Origin: Bacillota bacterium
GTDB lineage: Bacteria > Bacillota > Clostridia > Acetivibrionales > JAFADI01
Reading direction: 5' to 3'
DNA length: 41,577 nt
NCBI GenBank assembly: GCA_023424965.1
Contig: JAFADI010000267.1
Coordinates: 1 to 41,577 of the forward strand
A program made the translations under genes and the position numbers. The notes beneath the pieces were generated by a model. The model did no database searches. It saw only the letters and a list, made by a program, of their open reading frames with translations, and was not told the origin of the DNA. Below, one piece after another: positions 12,051-32,756 of this stretch; position 1 is the first letter of the stretch, and every line of letters begins with the position of its first letter.

Positions 12051-12103
12051 ATAAATATGATAAAATAAATTTACCACCAAACAATTAGATTATGGAGGAC
12101 GGC

Positions 12104-12934
12104 ATGAACAGCAATAATCTTTTTTTTCACATCCACTACTGCAATTACAGGCAATTTGGCGGGGCGGAAAGAGCCCTGCGGAAAATCACCCGGACGCTGC
12201 CGCACCATGAACTCCTCTTTATTAAAGGCGGGAAGGGCAGCATTACCATCGGAAAAAAGAGATATCAACTCAAAGGCTGCATGCTGTTCTACATTTGCCC
12301 CGATGTCCACCACTCCTTCGAGATAGACGCCGACGAGCCCGGATATTTTTTATCGGTACATTTCAGCTATGTACGCGTGAGCTTCAACGACAGCAAATGG
12401 GACATCAAAAACGAAGGAGACGGTCTCTCTCTGAGCCCCGGACAGGAATTGAAGGATTATTACCACATTGAGGACGCCTTCAGAAAATTGGCCGAAAGCT
12501 GGGAGACCAAGCTTCCGGGATACGAGTTTGCCACCAGGACGTTGCTTCAGCAATTATTGATTACGGTTTTCCAGCATACAAGAAAGCAAAATCAGAATTA
12601 CGCCATTTCTTTGAAGGTGGAAAAGGTCATTGAATACATGCATCAGCATGCGAGTCATAGGGTGAACCTGGCGGAATTGTCGGAGCTGGTGCATCTGGCG
12701 CCTACGTATCTGTCAAGGTCTTTTAAAGAGACGACGGGCTATTCTGTCATAGAATTTTTTAACCGGATAAAAATTGATAAAGCCAAAGAGCTTATGATCG
12801 AAGGGGACAAAAAGGTGAAGGAAGTGGCGCAAGCTCTGGGATTTACCGATGAATTCTATTTCAGCAGGATATTTAAACGGATTGAAGGCATGAGCCCCTC
12901 GGAATATTGTAGCAAAAATGTCCATGGAGTTTAA
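12104..12934 (+). CDS. AraC-family transcriptional regulator (cupin-like N-domain + AraC HTH)
   Basis: C-terminal ...SELVHLAPTYLSRSFKETTGYSVIEFFNRIKIDKAKELM...EVAQALGFTDEFYFSRIFKR is a classic AraC HTH. RBS GGAGGA precedes ATG 12104 (track start 12092 is an alternative). Confidence 0.85.
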   Translation: MNSNNLFFHIHYCNYRQFGGAERALRKITRTLPHHELLFIKGGKGSITIGKKRYQLKGCMLFYICPDVHHSFEIDADEPGYFLSVHFSYVRVSFNDSKWDIKNEGDGLSLSPGQELKDYYHIEDAFRKLAESWETKLPGYEFATRTLLQQLLITVFQHTRKQNQNYAISLKVEKVIEYMHQHASHRVNLAELSELVHLAPTYLSRSFKETTGYSVIEFFNRIKIDKAKELMIEGDKKVKEVAQALGFTDEFYFSRIFKRIEGMSPSEYCSKNVHGV

Positions 12935-13037
12935 TATAATGCATGGTATAAAGTCGGTCTGCAGGCTAAAATAAAAATATTCTCCTGTTGTTTTTGTACA
13001 ACAAATTTATCTGCAGTAGAAGGAAGGCATCGATATC

Positions 13038-14276
13038 ATGCAGGTTTGGAAAAGAAACTTATTTGTTTGCTGGTTCGGGATGTTTGTCACGGGCGTGGGT
13101 ATGAGCCAGATCGCACCGGTACTGCCTCTTTATATAAAGCAGCTTGGGATTGACGATACCGCTTCCATTGCACAGTTTTCAGGAATCGCTTTTGGCGTCA
13201 CTTTTATCATTTCGGCTATTTTTTCGCCTATCTGGGGCCATGCCGCCGATAAATTCGGGAGAAAGCCCATGCTTTTGCGGGCAAGCTTTGGCATGGCGGC
13301 CGTTATCTTCAGCATGGGTTTTGTGCAAAACGTATATCAACTGATTGGATTAAGAATATTGCTGGGTGTCATCACCGGCTACAGCACGGCCTGTACCACG
13401 CTGGTGGCAACCCAGACGGACAGGGAACACGCGGGTTTTGCCCTGGGGACCCTTTCAACGGCAAGCATCGCAGGGGCTTTGCTGGGACCGCTGATTGGAG
13501 GCTACATCGAAGAAAATCTCAGCCTGAAAGACGTGTTTTTCGTAACGGGCGCGCTGATGCTGGTTGCATTTGTTACCACCCTTTTCTTTGTAAAGGAATC
13601 CTTTACCCGGGAAGACAAAAAGGTGATCAGCGCCAGGGAACTGTGGAAGGCCATTCCTGAAAAAAGCCTGACGGTCACCATGTTTGTGACCTCTTTTGCA
13701 TTAGCTCTGGCCCTGTATTCCATCGAGCCCATCATCACGTTGTATGTCAGCCAGCTGTCCACCAGCACCAGTTATATCGCTTTGATAGCGGGAATGGCGT
13801 TCTCAGCGTCGGGGCTGGCAAACATCATCGCCGCTCCGGGTCTGGGAAAGCTTTCCGACAAGGTCGGAGCGCAGAAAGTCATGCTGGTAGCCCTCATCGC
13901 GGCGGGCCTGATTTTCATCCCACAGGCCTTTGTGAAAAATCCCTGGCAGTTGATGGCGCTGCGCTTTTTGCTGGGCTTGACGGTAGCGGGCTTGAATCCT
14001 TCCGTCAATGTCCTGGTGAAGAGAATCACGCCGGATGCCCTTACCGGCAGGATTTTCGGGTTTAATATCGCCGCACAGTATTTGGGAATATTCGGAGGTT
14101 CGATCTTGGGCGGGCAGGTGACGGCCTGGTTCGGCATCCGGTATGTATTTTTTATTACAAGCGTGCTGATGCTGCTGAATGCGGTGTGGGTTTATCTCAG
14201 GGTATACAAAAAGCTTACCGTAAAGGAAGATGAACAGGAGGAGAGGGAATGGGAGATTCAAAGGCAGCGGGGATAG
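13038..14276 (+). CDS. MFS transporter (12-TM, drug-efflux-like)
   Basis: MFS motifs [19 protein letters not shown]...; 412 aa with ~12 hydrophobic segments. Confidence 0.85.
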
Positions 14277-14839
14277 AACGGATAAAAACGGAGAAAACGG
14301 CGCTGGTGGTCATCGACCTGCAGAAGGGAATTGTACACGGTGAGCGTGCTCCCCATACAGGTGCGCAGGTGGTTCGAAACGCAAGCAGGCTGGCGAAAGC
14401 ATTTAGTGACAGGGGAGCTTTTGTGGTCCTTGTCAGGGTATCATCGGCCGATGGAAAGGACATGCTAAAACCGGAGACGGATTTAAAAAGCAGCCCGGTA
14501 CACAGGCCCGAAGGCTGGGACAGCCTTGTGCCCGAGCTGGCGGAGATTAAAAATGCCCATGTCATTACCAAGAGGCAGTGGGGGGCGTTCTACGGCACCG
14601 ACTTGGATTTGCAGCTGCGCCGCCGGGGAATCGATACCATTGTACTGTGCGGCATTTCCACGTCCATCGGTGTGGACACTACGGCCAGAGAGGCCTACCA
14701 GCACGGGTACAACCAGATTTTTGCGGAAGATGCCATGACAGCTTTCTCAAAAGAAGAGCATGAGTATGTGTGCAAATACCTCTTCCCCAGGATCGGCAAA
14801 ATCCGGACAAGCGAAGAGGTGGTTTCGGCGCTGGAATAA
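14249..14839 (+). CDS. Isochorismatase-family cysteine hydrolase
   Basis: [10 protein letters not shown]...; [23 protein letters not shown] (catalytic Cys region). Overlaps the MFS gene by 28 nt. Confidence 0.85.
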
Positions 14840-14842
14840 AAG
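14795..14842 (+). repeat. Left copy of a 48-bp imperfect direct repeat (GGCAAAATCCGGACAAGCGAAGAGGTGGTTTCGGCGCTGGAATAAAAG), the native 3' end of the isochorismatase gene; right copy at 18547-18597
   Basis: Direct comparison of the two copies: ~85% identity over ~50 nt. The right copy is out of coding context. Confidence 0.6.
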
Positions 14843-14850
14843 ATGAAGCC

Positions 14851-14869
14851 AATATAACTTCACATTATA
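14851..14869 (-). repeat. Partial, inverted copy of the module-boundary repeat family (minus strand reads TATAATGTGAAGTTATATT, i.e. left end fused to right end)
   Basis: Identical 14-mer TATAATGTGAAGTT to copy A at 24268-24281. Confidence 0.4.
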
Positions 14870-15031
14870 CCTCCCATGACTAATATGCATTTTATTTATA
14901 GGCGGGATTCAGATATAATTGGAAATGAAAGAACACTCAATATTAATTATCCTGGCATAGCAGTTGATCCCTTTCAATAATTTAATAATTCGAGGACAGA
15001 AAAAAGCAGTGAACTGTTTTCAGACTTGAGT

Positions 15032-15049
15032 GTGTTAATTATTTATCAA
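15032..15049. promoter_or_regulatory. Candidate Rex (redox-sensing repressor) operator GTGTTAA-TTAT-TTATCAA upstream of adhE
   Basis: Matches the TTGTTAA-N4-TTAACAA-type Rex box in 6/7 + 6/7 half-site positions, 33 nt upstream of the adhE start. adhE is a known Rex target in many Firmicutes. Confidence 0.35.
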
Positions 15050-15081
15050 TCTCGGTAAAAATAAAATGTATGGAGGGTATT

Positions 15082-17700
15082 ATGAATAAGGATGCAAAAA
15101 CATTAAAAGTAGATACGGTTGAAAACGTAGAGCAGTTGATCGATCGCATGAAGGAAATCAGAAACGCGCAAGAAATATTTGCCACCTTTCCCCAGGAAAA
15201 AGTTGACGAGATATTCAAAATGGCGGCTCTTGCAGCAAACAAACAGAGAATCCCTCTCGCTAAAATGACAGTGGAGGAAACTGGCATGGGCGTGGTGGAA
15301 GACAAGGTCATTAAAAACCACTATGCTTCCGAATATATTTACAATGCCTATAAAGATACCAAAACTTGTGGTATAATTGAAGAGGACGCAGCCTTCGGAG
15401 TTAAAAAAATTGCTGAGCCCATTGGTGTCATCGCAGCAGTTATCCCAACAACAAATCCAACTTCCACAGCAATCTTCAAAGCATTGCTGGCACTCAAAAC
15501 AAGAAACGGCATTATCTTCAGCCCCCATCCAAGAGCGAAAAACTGCACCATCGCAGCGGCAAAGATTGTACTGGAAGCAGCGGTCAAGGCCGGTGCCCCG
15601 GAAGGAATCATCGGTTGGATCGATGTTCCGTCGCTGGAGCTTACAAACCAGGTGATGAAGAATGCGGATATCATTCTCGCAACGGGAGGTCCGGGAATGG
15701 TCAAGTCGGCATATTCATCCGGCAAGCCCGCGATTGGCGTGGGAGCCGGCAACGTACCTGCCATTATCGACAAATCTGCCAATGTCCAGATGGCGGTGAG
15801 TTCCATTATCCTCTCCAAAACCTTTGACAACGGTATGATTTGTGCTTCCGAGCAATCGGTCATCGTTGATGCAAGCATATACGACAAGGTTAAAAAGGAA
15901 TTTGAATACCGGGGCTGCTACTTATTGAAGGGGGACGAAACCGAAAAGGTCAGAAAAACCATCATCATTAACGGTGCACTGAACGCCAAAATCGTTGGAC
16001 AGACAGCGCACAAAATCGCAGGCATTGCGGGGGTGAATGTACCGGAGGATACGAAAATCCTGATCGGTGAGGTTGAAAGTGTAGAGCTTTCCGAAGAATT
16101 CGCCCATGAAAAATTATCTCCTGTTTTGGCTATGTACAAATACAAAACCTTTGACGAGGCCATTGAAAAAGCCGACAGGCTTGTAAAAGACGGTGGGTAC
16201 GGTCATACGGCATCAATCTATATAAACACCGTTCTGGAAAAAGAAAAGCTTGACCGGTTCAACAATGCCATGAAGGCCTGCCGCATCGTTGTAAATACAC
16301 CTTCGTCACATGGCGGCATCGGCGATCTGTATAACTTCAAGCTTGCGCCGTCGCTGACTCTCGGCTGCGGTTCATGGGGCGGCAACTCCGTTTCTGAAAA
16401 CGTCGGTGTAAAGCACCTCATCAATATCAAAACAGTGGCTGAAAGGAGAGAAAATATGCTTTGGTTCAGAACTCCCGAGAAGGTTTATTTCAAGAAGGGG
16501 TGCCTGGGTGTCGCGCTTAAGGAGCTGAAGGACGAGTACAACAAGAAAAAGGTATTTATCGTAACAGACGAATTTTTATATAAGAACGGCTATACAAAAC
16601 CGGTTACCGAAGCACTCGACAGTATGGGGATAAACCATTTTACCTTCTACAACGTAGCTCCCGACCCGACCCTTGCCAGTGCAAAAGAAGGAGCGGAGTC
16701 CATGAAAGCCTTCGAACCGGATTGCATTATCGCGTTGGGCGGCGGCTCTGCCATGGATGCGGGCAAAATTATGTGGACCCTTTATGAACACCCGGAGGTT
16801 GACTTCCTTGACCTGGCCATGCGCTTTATGGATATCAGAAAGAGAGTTTACTCTTTCCCCAAAATGGGTGTGAAGGCAAACTTTATTGCGATCCCTACAT
16901 CCGCAGGCACCGGCTCGGAGGTTACACCCTTTGCAGTCATCACCGATGAAAAGACGGGCATCAAATATCCCCTGGCAGATTATGCGCTCTTGCCAAACAT
17001 GGCCATTGTGGATGCCGACCTGATGATGAACATGCCCAAGGGACTTACGTCGGCATCGGGCATCGATGCCATGACCCATGCCCTTGAAGCTTATGCTTCC
17101 ATGCTTGCAACGGATTACACCGACGGCTATGCGCTGAAAGCCCTGAAGAACATCTTCAGGTATCTGCCCAGCGCTTATGAAAACGGCGCAAAGGACCCTG
17201 TTGCAAGAGAAAAGATGGCGGACGCCTCTACCATGGCGGGTATGGCCTTTGCCAATGCCTTCCTGGGAATATGCCACTCCATGGCGCACAAGCTGGGTGC
17301 TTTCCATCACTTGCCGCATGGTGTTGCAAACGCACTTTTGATCAATGAGGTTATGAAGTTTAATGCAACCGACAACCCGAAGAAAATGGGAGCCTTCTCA
17401 CAGTATCAATATCCCCACGCCATTGAACGCTACGCTGAAATTGCGGATTTCCTTGGGATTGAAGGGAAGACCGATATGGATAAATTCAATAAGCTGCTGG
17501 TTAAAATCGATGAACTGAAGGAGAAAGTTGGCATCAAGAAGACCATCAAGGAATATGGTATCAGTGAAGAGGCCTTCATGGCAACGCTGGAAGAAATGGT
17601 TGAACAGGCTTTTGACGATCAGTGCACCGGTGCAAACCCAAGATATCCGTTAATGTCAGAAATGAGGGAAATGTATCTGAAAGCCTACCACGGAAAATAA
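15082..17700 (+). CDS. adhE: Bifunctional acetaldehyde-CoA/alcohol dehydrogenase
   Basis: ~870 aa; N-terminal ALDH domain, C-terminal iron-ADH domain (GGGSAMDAGK..., ...HSMAHKLGAFHHLPHG). RBS GGAGGG precedes the start. Confidence 0.95.
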   Translation: MNKDAKTLKVDTVENVEQLIDRMKEIRNAQEIFATFPQEKVDEIFKMAALAANKQRIPLAKMTVEETGMGVVEDKVIKNHYASEYIYNAYKDTKTCGIIEEDAAFGVKKIAEPIGVIAAVIPTTNPTSTAIFKALLALKTRNGIIFSPHPRAKNCTIAAAKIVLEAAVKAGAPEGIIGWIDVPSLELTNQVMKNADIILATGGPGMVKSAYSSGKPAIGVGAGNVPAIIDKSANVQMAVSSIILSKTFDNGMICASEQSVIVDASIYDKVKKEFEYRGCYLLKGDETEKVRKTIIINGALNAKIVGQTAHKIAGIAGVNVPEDTKILIGEVESVELSEEFAHEKLSPVLAMYKYKTFDEAIEKADRLVKDGGYGHTASIYINTVLEKEKLDRFNNAMKACRIVVNTPSSHGGIGDLYNFKLAPSLTLGCGSWGGNSVSENVGVKHLINIKTVAERRENMLWFRTPEKVYFKKGCLGVALKELKDEYNKKKVFIVTDEFLYKNGYTKPVTEALDSMGINHFTFYNVAPDPTLASAKEGAESMKAFEPDCIIALGGGSAMDAGKIMWTLYEHPEVDFLDLAMRFMDIRKRVYSFPKMGVKANFIAIPTSAGTGSEVTPFAVITDEKTGIKYPLADYALLPNMAIVDADLMMNMPKGLTSASGIDAMTHALEAYASMLATDYTDGYALKALKNIFRYLPSAYENGAKDPVAREKMADASTMAGMAFANAFLGICHSMAHKLGAFHHLPHGVANALLINEVMKFNATDNPKKMGAFSQYQYPHAIERYAEIADFLGIEGKTDMDKFNKLLVKIDELKEKVGIKKTIKEYGISEEAFMATLEEMVEQAFDDQCTGANPRYPLMSEMREMYLKAYHGK

Positions 17701-17712
17701 GGGGGATGGAAA

Positions 17713-18462
17713 ATGAAGCTTGATAATGTGATTTCAAAGAGGGAAAACAAAACGATTTATCGTGATGACAACGTGGCGATTAAAGTTTTCGACAGAAATT
17801 TTTCCAAATCGGACATATTGAACGAAGCATTAAATCAAGCAAGAGCGGAAGAAACCAACCTCAATGTTCCCAAAATCCTTGAGGTCACAAAGATCGACGG
17901 CAATTGGGCCATATGCTCCCAGTTCATTGAAGGGAAAACCTTATCCCAAATGATGGATGAGAACCCCGACAAAATGAATGAGTATATTGAGTGGTTTGTG
18001 GACATCCAAATGGAGGTTCACGCCCAAAATTCGCCTTTGATGACCAAGCTGAAGGATAAAATGGCCAGAAAGATCTCTCTGACCAAATTTGATGCAACAA
18101 CCCGCTACGACCTGCAAACCAGGCTGGAAGGAATGCCGAAGCACAACAAGGTATGCCACGGCGACTTCCGCCCAAGCAACATCATCATTACGGCGGAGGG
18201 CAAGCCCTATATCATCGACTGGTCCCATGCCACCCAGGGGAATGCATCGGCGGATGTCGCCAGAACCTATTTGATCTTCCTGCTGACGGACAGGAGGGAG
18301 GTAGGTGAATACTACCTGAAAACCTTCTGCCGGAAGAGCGATACGGCAAGGCAGTATGTTGAAAAGTGGATTCCCATTGTGGCAGCGTCACAGTCTGTGA
18401 AAGGCAAGCCGGAGGAAGTGAAGTTTTTAAGCCAGCTGGTGGATGTGGTTGATTATGATTGA
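17713..18462 (+). CDS. Protein-kinase-like phosphotransferase (APH/choline-kinase fold), 249 aa, co-transcribed with adhE
   Basis: Brenner motif HGDFRPSNIII and IDWSHA (HxDxxxxN ... D). Only 12 nt after the adhE stop, with GGGGGA RBS. Confidence 0.7.
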   Translation: MKLDNVISKRENKTIYRDDNVAIKVFDRNFSKSDILNEALNQARAEETNLNVPKILEVTKIDGNWAICSQFIEGKTLSQMMDENPDKMNEYIEWFVDIQMEVHAQNSPLMTKLKDKMARKISLTKFDATTRYDLQTRLEGMPKHNKVCHGDFRPSNIIITAEGKPYIIDWSHATQGNASADVARTYLIFLLTDRREVGEYYLKTFCRKSDTARQYVEKWIPIVAASQSVKGKPEEVKFLSQLVDVVDYD

Positions 18463-18472
18463 TAAATAGCTG

Positions 18473-18513
18473 AAAGGGACCTCTCAAAATTGATATTGAG
18501 AGGTCCCTTTTTA
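18473..18513 (+). terminator. Strong Rho-independent terminator (AAAGGGACCTCTCAA-loop-TTGAGAGGTCCCTTT + TTT)
   Basis: 15-bp perfect stem followed by a T-run. Confidence 0.85.
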
Positions 18514-18546
18514 TGTGGGGGAGCATCCCCTTTCTGTGTACCATCA

Positions 18547-18597
18547 GGCAAAATCCGCACATGCGAAGAGGTGGTTTCAGCGCCGGGATAGAAATGC
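18547..18597 (+). repeat. Right, degenerate copy of the isochorismatase 3'-end repeat (GGCAAAATCCGCACATGCGAAGAGGTGGTTTCAGCGCCGGGATAGAAATG), followed at 18598-18610 by a GTTTATATTCC motif resembling the right end of the boundary-repeat family
   Basis: Aligned to 14795-14842. Confidence 0.6.
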
Positions 18598-18653
18598 GTT
18601 TATATTCCGTTTAAATGAATGGTATATAATAATAGCAGGAGGTGATGTTTCCG

Positions 18654-19331
18654 GTGAACAGGATTTTGGTTGTGGACGACGACGGATATATCCGTGAGCT
18701 GGTGTGCACCGTGCTCAGGAGTGAAGGCTTTATTACTTTCGAAGCATCCGACGGGCGGGAAGCACTGCAAAAAATGACGGAAGTGAATCCCGACCTCTGC
18801 ATCATCGACATCATGATGCCCAACATGGATGGCTTCGAGCTGTGCCGCCAGCTCCGGCGGTACTATGAGGATATCCCGGTCCTGATGCTGACGGCGAAGG
18901 ATGACATCAGCCAGAAGGTGAAGGGCTTTGAAATGGGGACGGACGACTATCTGACAAAGCCCTTTGAGGCGGCGGAGCTGGTTGTGCGTGTGAAGGCGCT
19001 GCTCAAGCGGTACAAAATAAGCTCGTCCCAGACGGTTCAAATCGGCACGCTGACCATGGACAGGAGCAGCTATGCCATCCAGGCCGGCGGTGAGAAAATG
19101 GATATTCCCATGAAGGAATTCGAGCTGCTGTTCAAGCTGGGCAGCTATCCGGACAAAACCCTTTCCAGGAATCAACTTATTGAGGACATCTGGGGCTGTG
19201 ACTTCGACGGCAACGAGCGGACACTGGATGTGCACATCAACCGGCTGAGGGACCGCTTCCCTCCGGAAAATTTCCATTTTAGAATTACCACCATCCGTGG
19301 GCTGGGATACAGACTGGAGGGAACTCCATGA
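18654..19331 (+). CDS. OmpR-family response regulator
   Basis: Receiver domain ILVVDDD...DLCIIDIMMP; winged-helix C-terminus ...TIRGLGYRL. Start ambiguous (GTG 18642 / ATG 18645 / GTG 18654 after AGGAGGTGA). Confidence 0.9.
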   Translation: MNRILVVDDDGYIRELVCTVLRSEGFITFEASDGREALQKMTEVNPDLCIIDIMMPNMDGFELCRQLRRYYEDIPVLMLTAKDDISQKVKGFEMGTDDYLTKPFEAAELVVRVKALLKRYKISSSQTVQIGTLTMDRSSYAIQAGGEKMDIPMKEFELLFKLGSYPDKTLSRNQLIEDIWGCDFDGNERTLDVHINRLRDRFPPENFHFRITTIRGLGYRLEGTP

Positions 19332-20425
19332 AAAAAACAAGGTGGTATCAATTTGCGGCACATGCGGCCGTAATCCTGCTGCTCATCAGCTGCGCCTTTG
19401 TGGCGGGCTACGGCGTGACGGAACTGATTTTCCTGGCGACGGGACATCCGCCGGAGCTCGTGGCCCATGTGCTTTCGGGCCTTGCGGCTTTCTTGCTGAT
19501 GCCGCTGGCGGGAGGCCTGTTTTCCCGTTTTGACAGGCGGTTGGTCGGGAGGGAATTCCGGAATTTTCCCTATGGAAGGCTGCTGGGGGATACACTGGAT
19601 GCCATGAAGCGGATTGCCCAGGGAGATTTCAATGTGTTTGTCGCCACGGAGGATGAGCGGGGGCCTTTTAACGAGCTGGCCCACAGCGTCAACAAAATGG
19701 CCATGGAGCTGGGTTCCATGGAGAAGCTGCGGCAGGACTTCATTTCCAACGTCTCCCACGAGATCCAGTCCCCCTTGACCTCCATCAGTGGGTATGCCTC
19801 CCTGTTGAAGCGGGAGGGGACCAGCCGCGAGCAGATTATCCACTACGCCTCAATCATCGAAACGGAAAGCAAGCGGCTGTCAAAGCTGAGCGACAATCTT
19901 TTGAAACTTTCAGCGCTGGAGGTGGACGGTGCTTCCCTGGAACACAAGCCCTTCCGCCTGGACAAACAGCTTGAAAGCATCCTACTGATGCTGGAGCCTC
20001 AATGGTCCGAGAAGAACATCATGCCCGACGTGTCGCTGTCCAACGTGGTGACGACGGGCAGTGAGGATTTGCTGAGCCAGGTGTGGATCAACCTCCTGCA
20101 CAACGCCATCAAATTCACCCCGGAAAACGGGAGGATCCGGGTGACCCTCACCGCGGGCAAAGACTGCGTGGTATGTACCGTTGCCGACAACGGTATCGGT
20201 ATCTCGCCGGAGGATCAGATCCACATCTTTGAACGGTTCTACAAGGTGGACAAGGCCCGCGACCGTTCCCTGGGCGGCAACGGCCTGGGGCTTTCCCTGG
20301 TGAAGAAGATTGTGGAGCTGCACGGGGGGAGGATTGCCGTCAAAAGCGAGATGGGAAAGGGGACGGAGTTCATTGTAACCCTGCCGGATCATCCCGCAGC
20401 CGCCCCCGGTTTACACTGCGTTTAA
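19328..20425 (+). CDS. Sensor histidine kinase (2 TM, HAMP, HisKA, HATPase_c)
   Basis: H-box SNVSHEIQSPLTSISGY; N, G1, G2 boxes (LLHNAIKFT, DNGIGI, GGNGLGLSLVK). Overlaps the RR stop (ATGA). Confidence 0.9.
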   Translation: MKKTRWYQFAAHAAVILLLISCAFVAGYGVTELIFLATGHPPELVAHVLSGLAAFLLMPLAGGLFSRFDRRLVGREFRNFPYGRLLGDTLDAMKRIAQGDFNVFVATEDERGPFNELAHSVNKMAMELGSMEKLRQDFISNVSHEIQSPLTSISGYASLLKREGTSREQIIHYASIIETESKRLSKLSDNLLKLSALEVDGASLEHKPFRLDKQLESILLMLEPQWSEKNIMPDVSLSNVVTTGSEDLLSQVWINLLHNAIKFTPENGRIRVTLTAGKDCVVCTVADNGIGISPEDQIHIFERFYKVDKARDRSLGGNGLGLSLVKKIVELHGGRIAVKSEMGKGTEFIVTLPDHPAAAPGLHCV

Positions 20426-24033: not shown

Positions 24034-24248
24034 TATAAAGGATACTGAAACGGCAGAGACTACCTGCTTGTTTCTCTTTTCCAGGCTTTCAATGCTGGTG
24101 AAGGATTCGGGCCTTTTAATCGGTATATTCCTTTCTCCATAGGAAGCAGCTCGCCATTTGGCCGACAAACTTCCAGCCAAACTGTTCGTAGGTGGATCTG
24201 TAATCTTTTTTCGGGAATGCCTGCATGTCATAAATATATCTGCATTTT

Positions 24249-24316
24249 CAAAATTTCAAGGACAAAATATAATGTGAAGTTCATTCTTCCAAACTGAAGC
24301 TCCGGGTATTTATAAT
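24249..24316 (+). repeat. Boundary-repeat family copy A: CAAAATT..N..TATAATGTGAAGTTC-N13-GAAGCTCCGGGTATTTATAAT
   Basis: Aligned to copies B (32623-32691) and C (36101-36175). Lies ~160 nt upstream of the LuxR/STAND regulator gene. Confidence 0.6.
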
Positions 24317-24473
24317 TCCTGTGCTGCTGAACGAGTGAGTAGTTATGTCTATTCTATTCACATGTTTGACTTGGGAGTTTTCACAATTGAGAGCAAGCAG
24401 CGGTTTGTGAAAAATACTTTACTCGATCTTTGATTTATGAGACTATTAAAATAGGAGTATTTTTATTGAAAAA

Positions 24474-32451: not shown

Positions 32452-32622
32452 AGCCCTCCGCTGGAATCAACGCCGTCATCAGCCAATGGATGTTCTTGAC
32501 CTACTCGCTTCCACAGCGGTGTTCTTTGTGTATGGTCGGAGAAAAACAGGTAAAGAAGAAAGTAAAATGCATCGATGGATAGGGTATCTGCCGGTGTCTT
32601 TTAGTCAAATTTTTGTTCAATA

Positions 32623-32691
32623 TCAAAATTTTGAGGATAAATTATAATGCGAAGTTCATTTTAACAAATTCAAGTTCCGAGCATTTATATT
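32623..32691 (+). repeat. Boundary-repeat family copy B: TCAAAATT..N..TATAATGCGAAGTTC-N14-AAGTTCCGAGCATTTATATT
   Basis: Aligned to copies A and C. Sits between the degraded XRE/Cys-ORF region and the 3' end of the TetR gene. Confidence 0.6.
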
Positions 32692-32756
32692 TTGTACAGC
32701 AAAAGAGTCCGATTAAATAATTTTAGTCGCAAATTGCTGGAAGAAAACAGATATGA

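Follow-up and report, generated by a model that had tools for sequence, protein, structure and literature searches.

In the window (the whole stretch of DNA analysed here, 41.6 kb long), a three-gene module encoding an AraC regulator, an MFS transporter and an isochorismatase-family hydrolase was followed by an operon made of adhE and a gene for a small kinase-fold protein, then by an intrinsic terminator, a fossil of the isochorismatase 3' end and a two-component system with efflux genes behind it (Table 1). About 20 Bacillota genera carried the AraC-MFS-isochorismatase trio side by side (54-77% amino-acid identity), and a different downstream neighbour followed it in nearly all of 22 genomes.

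The adhE gene and its kinase-like partner are a common chromosomal pair, not mobile-element cargo. The end of adhE lay at most 400 nt from the start of the kinase-like gene in 60 of the 61 loci with enough upstream room, and adhE of the window was 72-83% identical to the adhE genes preceding the kinase-like gene in metagenome loci. None of the other adhE and kinase-like loci had an isochorismatase gene beside the pair, and no flanking repeats were found at the 29 loci whose two flanks were long enough. In GC, GC3 and codon-usage distance, the two genes did not stand apart from the rest of the window; the comparison of adhE with its flanks that had been proposed along with the initial annotation gave GC and codon-usage values inside the window's range, with no anomaly. 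The compositional outlier was the regulator-kinase pair, which had the highest GC3 of the region (0.72-0.75).

Upstream of adhE, a 19-nt box (TGTTAATTATTTATCAATC) is predicted to be a Rex-like operator, which we take it to be from the Rex consensus; it was the sole element in common with the isochorismatase-adhE spacer of Clostridium acidisoli (locus L013). When non-coding sequence was compared with 34 upstream and about 75 downstream regions from relatives, scores stayed at noise level and gave no borders of the adhE unit. The operon was closed by a terminator with a 16-bp stem (18472-18511, then UUUUUAU; z=-5.4), and the promoter region of the response regulator was kept 5' of orthologous regulators (77-84% identity) at three other loci (L090, L091 and L092), which had unrelated genes upstream. 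No RNA genes emerged in this region from scans for tRNAs and Rfam families.

Table 1. Position of genes, repeat copies and signals around the adhE operon
Feature	Position	Strand	Description
AraC regulator (12092-12934), MFS transporter (13038-14276), isochorismatase-family hydrolase (14249-14839)	12092..14839	+	Three-gene module; Pfam
Repeat copy A	14792..14845	+	Final 48 nt of the live isochorismatase gene, stop TAA 14837-14839, and 6 nt beyond
adhE upstream region	14846..15069	+	Predicted, presumably Rex-like operator TGTTAATTATTTATCAATC at 15032-15050
adhE, bifunctional aldehyde/alcohol dehydrogenase	15070..17700	+	Pfam Aldedh, Fe-ADH and ADH_Fe_C
APH/RIO-like small kinase-fold protein	17713..18462	+	Conserved adhE partner; Pfam APH 4e-11, RIO1 1e-8
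Intrinsic terminator of the adhE operon	18472..18516	+	Inverted repeat, folding
Terminator-copy B spacer	18517..18542	+	Second short hairpin GGGGGAGCATCCCC, then TTTCTGTGT; putative right-hand junction of the event
Repeat copy B	18543..18596	+	Isochorismatase 3'-end fossil, non-functional; in-frame GKIRTCEEVVSAPG, stop TAG 18589-18591
Native response-regulator promoter region	18598..18641	+	Direct GTTTA boxes GTTTATATTCCGTTTAAAT 18598-18616, TATAAT-like element, ribosome-binding site
OmpR-type response regulator (18645 or 18654 to 19331), histidine kinase (19328-20425)	18645..20425	+	
HlyD/YknX, ABC and FtsX efflux genes	3' of the histidine kinase, up to 23862		

A second, non-coding end of the isochorismatase gene

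The longest direct repeat returned by a repeat search of the whole window joined 14795-14841 to 18547-18593, with 41 of 47 nt identical in ungapped alignment (87%). A gapped alignment with one indel on each side extended it to copies A and B as delimited in Table 1 (47 of 55 columns identical; longest perfect run of 16 nt, GCGAAGAGGTGGTTTC), and the blastn E-value of the match within the window was 6e-9. The initial annotation had described an imperfect repeat of the isochorismatase 3' end with a non-coding second copy, placed right after a strong terminator, and both points were borne out: the repeat covered 47 nt at 87% or 54 nt with indels, and the second copy lay 33 nt past the 16-bp stem (-35.4 kcal/mol). 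At its other side, copy B ended 2 nt before the promoter boxes of the response regulator.

Although non-coding, copy B kept the reading frame of the gene and, translated in that frame, read GKIRTCEEVVSAPG* with its stop at the same position as in copy A. Since the frame is readable and the stop codon stands at the matching place, copy B is a fossil gene end. Six differences separated the two copies, three of them silent (TAA to TAG counted among these), a split too small (n=6) to separate allelic differences that existed beforehand from decay that came afterwards. A G-to-T change in strain L083 (position 18568) turned GAG into TAG inside the old reading frame of copy B. Homology between the copies had an abrupt left edge 51 nt ahead of the stop codon and ended 6 nt past it, with none beyond the repeat either leftward (p=0.45) or rightward (p=0.76), and the spacer between terminator and copy B displayed no similarity to the sequence 5' of copy A.

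Among the homologues compared, copy A was the nearest to copy B. The DNA score of copy B was 64 against copy A and at most 31 against the other gene tails (80 loci), while its peptide shared 11 of 13 residues with copy A and at most 10 with any C-terminus among about 120 database proteins. Besides copy B, no further fragment of an isochorismatase, MFS or AraC gene was found in the window. Pieces of a boundary-repeat family, initially reported at both junctions, could be retrieved only as a 14-nt match (14856-14869) to an 86-nt two-copy repeat (24232-24317 and 32607-32692; E=0.03), and nothing of the family was seen at the right junction.

Occurrence in other assemblies and in relatives

The same arrangement was obtained on eight contigs with the exact isochorismatase protein and on six with the exact response regulator, from several samples and under several naming styles, with one 99.2%-identical strain included (source samples include SAMN17215479/81/84 and the ENA assemblies ERZ27268947/55/64); all 14 conspecific contig matches carried the integrated arrangement. 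Independent contigs and a second strain thus exclude an assembly artefact, and SNP density along the two strains showed no block structure. A chance similarity was opposed by the Smith-Waterman score of the two copies (64-66), against a best score of 29 for copy B in 30 shuffles of the window and at most 36 for the best second match of the own gene tail in 79 of 80 unrelated control loci, as well as by the frame and stop position kept in copy B. A coincidental match shorter than about 20 nt, the alternative considered initially, fails on the 47-nt alignment and on this score, and the probability that the likeness of the copies reflects chance or assembly is negligible.

Relatives of the locus were distant. 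Isochorismatase homologues above 77% identity were absent from a genome-contig scan, as were those above 80% from a search of 5.8 billion proteins, and no histidine kinase homologue fell between 74% and 100% identity in the collections searched. The nearest isochorismatase and histidine-kinase relatives were not syntenic, those of the kinase being placed in unrelated contexts. A Band7-like anchor gene had an 87% relative on a 3.1 kb contig only, and its 77-79% relatives had in common only their own three-gene operon. Exact-protein look-ups returned the same adhE-containing arrangement only.

Possible routes to the present arrangement

Being in frame and directly against a conserved promoter, copy B indicates that an isochorismatase gene once abutted the two-component system, and, as read from the sequence, the adhE operon now occupies the place where the two met. 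An insertion or displacement of the 3.7 kb adhE operon, in a general sense, is supported. The inserted unit put forward in the initial annotation therefore stood in this general sense, through the fossil end lying against the conserved promoter, but not as a site-specific attL/attR element (no integrase, an ordinary gene pair and no composition contrast). The lack of an integrase, also given there, was corroborated by the absence of recombinase or transposase domains from window ORFs of at least 150 aa. The arrangement of the two copies is an ordinary recombination scar and provides no evidence for a new mobile element.

Homology-anchored displacement (homology-facilitated illegitimate recombination) is tentatively preferred over its rivals as the most likely route. 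While the fossil, its reading frame, its exact borders and its place between terminator and conserved promoter are observed, the event's direction, the arrangement of the donor and the recombination type are inferred, as follows. The old end of the isochorismatase gene would have lain 2-6 nt 5' of the response-regulator promoter, and the donor fragment would have carried an AraC-MFS-isochorismatase module and then the adhE operon. On the left side, the donor module would have paired with the resident module, while on the right side an illegitimate join would have been made 51 nt before the resident stop codon. Recombination would have put 3.7 kb (the adhE promoter, adhE, the kinase-like gene, the terminator and 33 nt) between the hydrolase and the two-component system. 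The incoming DNA would have brought its own intact gene end, copy A, which could explain that the hydrolase gene is still whole and the old end shifted downstream, where, as copy B, it would now be decaying. As the window had no other fragment of the module, the old gene's 5' portion was probably either reused or replaced.

Several features argue for this displacement: the homology stops at the gene end, where module copies in different contexts would diverge; copy B keeps frame and stop, is nearest to copy A and abuts a promoter conserved elsewhere; the insert is one complete operon only, a widespread chromosomal pair; and no recombinase was found in the window or was recurrent beside this gene in other genomes. 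The right-hand junction (18542/18543) was abrupt, with no homology left of it, and the displaced end was kept against a recipient-type promoter, as at an illegitimate joint. The AraC-MFS-isochorismatase module could act as an anchor because it is widespread and occurs in varied contexts. Donor-type arrangements do occur, since adhE directly followed the isochorismatase gene in C. acidisoli, the one such adjacency among 22 module loci, with no fossil there. Against displacement, the adhE of C. acidisoli was only 66% identical and had no kinase-like partner, and no donor arrangement was found for this adhE lineage (0 adhE and kinase-like loci with an isochorismatase gene or module upstream). Moreover, the 13% divergence between copies A and B, if already present then, would make RecA-dependent pairing inefficient, and published homology-facilitated illegitimate recombination usually deletes recipient DNA, while about 50 nt were duplicated here.

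At the Sporolactobacillus mangiferae locus (L021, contig NZ_JAMAST010000005.1), the gene end occurred three times in succession with cargo in between, a YcaO-type peptide cluster and then an MFS-MerR pair. The two extra copies matched the live one at 97.5% and 84.5% identity, the repeats reaching 157 nt at 97.5%. Copies 2 and 3 shared a 78-nt left flank adjoining an IS200-like transposase fragment, which lay about 300 nt from the second copy, and the array has the look of recurrent displacement and not of one att core.

Positions 16548-16652 of the same locus, about 260 nt from the IS200-like fragment, matched a sequence just 5' of araC in another locus, L022 (106 nt, 74.5%). This match suggested a circular permutation of the module and may be related to insertion sequences; the L022 ORF overlapping it had no Pfam match.

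Site-specific integration would give a comparable picture. An element with adhE and the kinase-like gene would have integrated in the isochorismatase 3' end through an attP mimicking the gene end, copies A and B being attL and attR, and its integrase would have been lost or would have acted in trans, leaving a CIME-like remnant. Direct repeats of the target site did flank the segment, with the target gene regenerated, and the 16-nt identical core could be the crossover region. Integrase-less derivatives of integrative elements that keep attL and attR (CIMEs) are a recognised class (PMC5704250), and the S. mangiferae array with its differing cargo resembles an accretion of integrative elements. 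The excised circle would join 18542 to 14846 via one hybrid copy and read ...CTTTCTGTGTACC, a hybrid 47-mer and GATGAAGCCAATATAAC... at its junction, and the emptied chromosome would read ...CCCCAGGATC, a hybrid 47-mer and GCGTTTATATTCCG....

This integration is nevertheless unlikely. Pfam scans of all window ORFs of at least 150 aa displayed no integrase, relaxase, transposase or other element gene or pseudogene, in the 3.7 kb segment or in the 41.6 kb window, and apart from two genes with their promoter and terminator the segment had only 33 nt, without element debris or compositional contrast. Its cargo is a bare housekeeping-type operon, repeat-free at the 29 other loci and never linked to isochorismatase there. 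Of the families matched by at least two of the 83 ORFs located within 6 kb downstream of the isochorismatase gene in 20 related loci, none was a recombinase family. Furthermore, the 16-nt core had a dyad symmetry of at most 3 nt, as judged by eye, and the left border of the S. mangiferae repeats ran on into the 78-nt flank, unlike an att core.

A Campbell-type single crossover, in which a circle with a short gene-end fragment and the adhE operon recombined through RecA at the chromosomal gene end, would produce exactly the geometry observed (an intact gene, the insert and a truncated copy of the homologous fragment), and the 157-nt repeats of S. mangiferae, 97.5% identical, are long enough for RecA. 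In the window, however, only about 54 nt are shared, with a longest perfect run of 16 nt, very short for RecA unless the copies were identical at that time, and the circle would have to draw its gene end from a donor with isochorismatase followed by adhE, the same unobserved arrangement as for displacement; such a crossover is quite unlikely. It is very unlikely that the 3' end of the isochorismatase gene, the last one in a widely transferred module, is a recurrent landing site for integrase-less cassettes, with the recombinase encoded elsewhere, a case in which the adhE operon of the window and S. mangiferae would be two independent cassette accretions at a common att site in coding sequence.

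A local tandem duplication could have left copy B if it ran from a point 51 nt ahead of the stop codon to one 33 nt beyond the terminator, with the second adhE copy deleted later. Among spontaneous rearrangements in bacteria, tandem duplications are the most frequent, and the left junction of copy B, where the terminator with its 33 nt meets the gene at -51, does resemble a duplication join point. Such a deletion must begin exactly 6 nt past the stop and finish exactly at the regulator promoter, two events with coincident end points are required, and the stop of homology at the gene end is left unaccounted for. The 13% divergence would imply great age, yet no other remnant of a second copy was found; this history is highly improbable. 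An origin of the regulator-kinase segment as the incoming DNA, bringing 54 nt of its former neighbour as copy B, is in line with the high GC3 of this segment and the unrelated contexts of its nearest relatives, but it is extremely improbable, needing a neighbour of the same uncommon family, in the same orientation and most like the resident gene 3.7 kb upstream.

Insertion of a transposon or insertion sequence with target-site duplication was rejected, with no transposase found and an imperfect repeat of 47-54 nt against the usual 2-14 bp. The best inverted repeat across the segment ends was 22 nt long with 77% complementarity.

Comparison with known systems

The fossil dates and orients one assembly step of a mosaic region, in which a central fermentation operon, adhE with its kinase-like partner, was apparently spliced between a drug- or metabolite-handling module and a two-component/efflux module. 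Even in the absence of mobile-element genes, splicing of this kind can leave a scar that is still readable. If scars of this type are common at the ends of horizontally transferred modules, as S. mangiferae hints, stranded gene ends could be cheap markers of displacement in metagenome-assembled genomes; the single case is a useful annotation point rather than a discovery.

ICESt1 and ICESt3, in fda of Streptococcus thermophilus, are examples of integrative elements whose target is a protein-coding gene's 3' end. As with such elements and CIMEs, imperfect repeats of the target 3' end flank the insert and the target gene is intact; the integrase can be missing in decayed CIME-type derivatives, and tandem accretion yields arrays of sites. 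Unlike them, the segment described here held no integrase, transfer gene or element remnant, its content was a single chromosomal-type operon, and no related integrase-bearing element appeared at this target in the 20 loci at the level of at least two loci. Campbell integration likewise duplicates a homologous segment on both sides of the insert with the second copy truncated, although the segment shared here is very short and now 13% diverged, and no replicon or circular form is known.

Homology-facilitated illegitimate recombination was put forward for displaced 3' ends in the T6SS effector-immunity arrays of Vibrio cholerae and in Rhs/CDI loci (PMC5361080). The cargo of the window, a central-metabolism operon, differs from the toxin-immunity pairs of T6SS/Rhs loci; a variable toxin domain is not what the gene end encodes, the old and new ends specifying nearly the same peptide; and the window has one fossil only, with no evident selection for diversification. 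Like the orphan 3' ends of T6SS/Rhs loci, the arrangement can be read as a conserved upstream gene serving as anchor, incoming DNA carrying a new gene end with new downstream genes, and an old 3' end moved downstream and persisting as a fragment, with no integrase involved. In T6SS/Rhs loci, repeated events of this kind give arrays, with which the row of gene ends in S. mangiferae may be compared.

The hydrolase gene end and its fossil copy

The 3' end of the isochorismatase-family hydrolase gene (copy A) recurred as a direct repeat beyond adhE and its kinase-like partner gene (copy B). Positions 14795-14841 and 18547-18593 were identical at 41 of 47 ungapped positions and, with one indel on each side, the alignment covered the full extent of both copies (47 of 55 columns identical). 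The pair was the longest direct repeat of the entire 41.6 kb window, with a local-alignment score of 64 to 66 against a best of 29 from 30 shuffled windows; in 79 of 80 unrelated loci, the gene tail searched against its own 20 kb scored 36 or less. The imperfect repeat of the hydrolase 3' end claimed in the initial annotation was thus far above both controls. Local alignment yielded no significant similarity beyond the borders, to the left or right. All contigs with an identical hydrolase (8) or an identical regulator (6) displayed the same arrangement; they came from several samples and included a second strain, 99.2% identical over 20.6 kb, and an assembly artefact was therefore ruled out.

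In the hydrolase frame, copy B read GKIRTCEEVVSAPG followed by a stop codon aligned with that of the live gene, which makes it the fossil of a gene end; low-complexity coincidence was rejected, frame and stop position being kept. The DNA of copy B scored 64 against copy A and at most 31 against the tails of 80 homologues, while its peptide matched copy A at 11 of 13 positions (10 for the closest among about 120 database homologues). No further fragments of the hydrolase, transporter or AraC regulator genes were found elsewhere in the window. The second strain had a stop codon within the old frame, through G-to-T substitution at 18568, and the spacer with copy B had the top SNP density among short segments of the region in the two-strain comparison; judged by these substitutions, copy B is drifting, not conserved.

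Coordinates of features in the window and in comparison loci (L013, Clostridium acidisoli; L021, Sporolactobacillus mangiferae, NZ_JAMAST010000005.1; L091 and L092, contigs with related regulators)
Feature	Locus	Position	Strand	Remark
AraC-MFS-hydrolase trio	window	12092-14839		
AraC regulator	window	12092-12934	+	
MFS transporter	window	13038-14276	+	
Isochorismatase-family hydrolase	window	14249-14839	+	
Copy A	window	14792-14845		
Rex-like box (putative)	window	15032-15050		
Rex-like box (putative)	L013	10823-10841		
adhE	window	15070-17700	+	
APH/RIO-like kinase-fold protein	window	17713-18462	+	249 aa
Copy B	window	18543-18596		
GTTTATATTCCGTTTAAAT	window	18598-18616		
GTTTA-box region	window	18598-18641		
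GTTTA-box region	L091	9267-9300		
GTTTA-box region	L092	9246-9280		
OmpR-type response regulator and histidine kinase	window	18645-20425	+	
HlyD/YknX, ABC, FtsX efflux genes	window		+	after regulator-kinase pair
86-nt repeat	window	24232-24317, 32607-32692		77% identical
Gene-end copy 1	L021	10496-10652		attached to live gene
Gene-end copy 2	L021	17429-17584		97.5% identical to copy 1
Gene-end copy 3	L021	19884-20040		84.5% identical to copy 1
IS200-type transposase fragment	L021	16914-17123	-	
106-nt piece	L021	12666-12771, 19709-19814		100% identical

Modules on either side of the scar

As the initial annotation had described, copy B lay right after the strong intrinsic terminator closing the adhE operon (16-bp stem, -35.4 kcal/mol, z=-5.4), starting 33 nt past it. 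Its end was separated by 2 nt from GTTTATATTCCGTTTAAAT, with direct GTTTA boxes 11 nt apart, then a TATAAT-like element. Boxes and element were kept upstream of orthologous regulators (77 to 84% identity) on three other contigs with unrelated upstream genes, and the boxes are probably an autoregulatory binding site. Since the promoter boxes were conserved in unrelated contexts, the native two-component promoter begins where the fossil ends; an isochorismatase gene formerly ended immediately before this promoter. Within the region, GC3 peaked in the regulator-kinase pair (18642-20425; 0.72-0.75 vs 0.55-0.65 in neighbours). The nearest relatives of this pair (74-84% identity) were located in unrelated contexts, so it may itself be a transferred module.

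The AraC, MFS and hydrolase genes are a module. About 20 genera (e.g., Pelosinus, Clostridium, Bacillus, Paenibacillus, Sporolactobacillus, Propionispira) carried the trio, with amino-acid identities of 54-77% and hardly any downstream genes common to their genomes; it behaves like a horizontally transferred three-gene module. Its loci (L001-L022) belonged to Negativicutes, Clostridia and Bacilli, plus one contig binned as Methanosarcina; within one set of Clostridium loci, at least L013 had a TetR-family gene directly upstream, replacing AraC.

In 60 of the 61 metagenome loci with upstream room, adhE ended within 400 nt of the kinase-like gene, making the latter a near-obligate downstream partner of adhE and suggesting a conserved functional link, for which no name was found. 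These kinase-like relatives (L093-L172; 65-76% identity) came in many cases from gut, rumen and digester samples. Neither the hydrolase module nor this two-component system lay near the pair in any of those metagenome loci, and flanking direct repeats were found at none of the 29 with both flanks (scores at most 28; cross-locus controls at most 31; window itself 66). Widespread and free of flanking repeats elsewhere, the adhE pair is thus an ordinary chromosomal operon, bracketed by gene-end copies in the window organism only. In C. acidisoli, adhE (66% identical to the window adhE, without kinase-like partner) directly followed the hydrolase gene, without a fossil, an adjacency lending weak backing to the existence of a donor arrangement. 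The sole element common to both hydrolase-adhE spacers was a candidate Rex-like operator, TGTTAAnTAnTTATCAATC.

Stranded gene ends in Sporolactobacillus mangiferae

Stranded ends of the hydrolase gene also occur outside the window. In the S. mangiferae locus, the end of the resident hydrolase gene, together with its terminator, was present three times in direct orientation. Copies 1 and 2 enclosed a 6.8 kb YcaO/nitroreductase/ABC (RiPP-like) cluster, and a 2.3 kb MFS-MerR pair separated copy 2 from copy 3; these last two copies had an additional 78-nt left flank in common. A transposase fragment lay about 300 nt from copy 2, and no integrase was found in the locus. The sister species S. kofuensis (L022) had only the module in common with it, homology ending about 10 nt before the stop codon. 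This array has the look of several successive displacements, and it leaves a small chance that cassettes genuinely land at the hydrolase gene end. A 106-nt piece from within a YcaO gene recurred directly left of copy 3, next to a repeat only 87% identical, and could reflect recent gene conversion, rearrangement or an assembly problem.

Origin of the scar

The adhE and kinase-like genes were very probably placed between a hydrolase gene and the regulator promoter, leaving the old gene end behind. Homology-anchored displacement is, tentatively, the favoured model. Donor DNA in which the adhE operon comes after the module would pair with the resident module, the far side would be joined illegitimately 51 nt before the resident stop codon, and the resident gene end would be stranded downstream. 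This model is favoured because it needs no recombinase and accounts for an insert of one clean operon and for the missing 5' part of the old gene. However, no donor-type locus carrying this adhE lineage was found, the 13% by which the copies now differ would impede pairing if older than the event, and published events of this kind usually delete, rather than duplicate, recipient DNA. The right border of homology was sharp, 6 nt past the stop codon, as expected both from module copies of different genomic contexts and from an attP mimic.

Site-specific integration, the reading of the initial annotation, is unlikely. The annotation is borne out in part, as regards an insertion or displacement scar; no evidence was found for an integrative element. 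The attL/attR picture holds up in its geometry alone, and each test for an actual element came out negative, with no recombinase, no debris, no compositional contrast and no recurrent integrase. No recombinase, transposase or relaxase domain occurred in any ORF of at least 150 aa of the 41.6 kb window, in line with the integrase absence already stated; no tRNA genes were found, and Rfam gave no match in the region. The 3.7 kb between the copies held a promoter region with the Rex-like box, two genes, a terminator and 33 nt only, and no remnants of a decayed element. The composition check proposed earlier for adhE, applied to the kinase-like gene as well, put both within the window's range of GC, GC3 and codon usage, the regulator-kinase pair being the compositional outlier. 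In 20 related loci, 83 ORFs lay in the 6 kb after the hydrolase gene, and no family of recombinases had matches to two or more of them. Elements that keep their att sites and lose the integrase are known as CIMEs (PMC5704250); such an origin of the adhE segment is conceivable, but nothing positive supported it. The most telling comparison would be with relatives whose hydrolase gene runs straight into the two-component system; database searches returned no hydrolase homologues above 80% identity and no histidine-kinase homologues between 74% and 100%, the kinase relatives lying in unrelated contexts. For a nearby anchor gene, a relative at 87% was confined to a contig of just 3.1 kb, and those at 77-79% shared their own operon only.

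Boundary-repeat pieces, reported earlier at both junctions, came down to one 14-nt match (14856-14869), with nothing at the right junction. The match target was the two-copy 86-nt repeat, probably the family meant. This direct repeat has a 27-nt core (AATGAACTTCRCATTATAWTTTRTCCT on the minus strand), and its copies flank a low-GC 8.3 kb block with a MalT-like regulator, a DsbD/HMA protein, an ECF riboflavin S component and an aminotransferase.

A Campbell-type single crossover is improbable, and tandem duplication followed by deletion, which would give the sharp right border only by coincidence, very improbable; that the fossil came in together with the two-component module is more improbable still. 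The displacement model has been put forward for series of displaced 3' ends at T6SS and Rhs loci (PMC5361080), and the scar marked by copies A and B is a fresh example of an already known recombination footprint.
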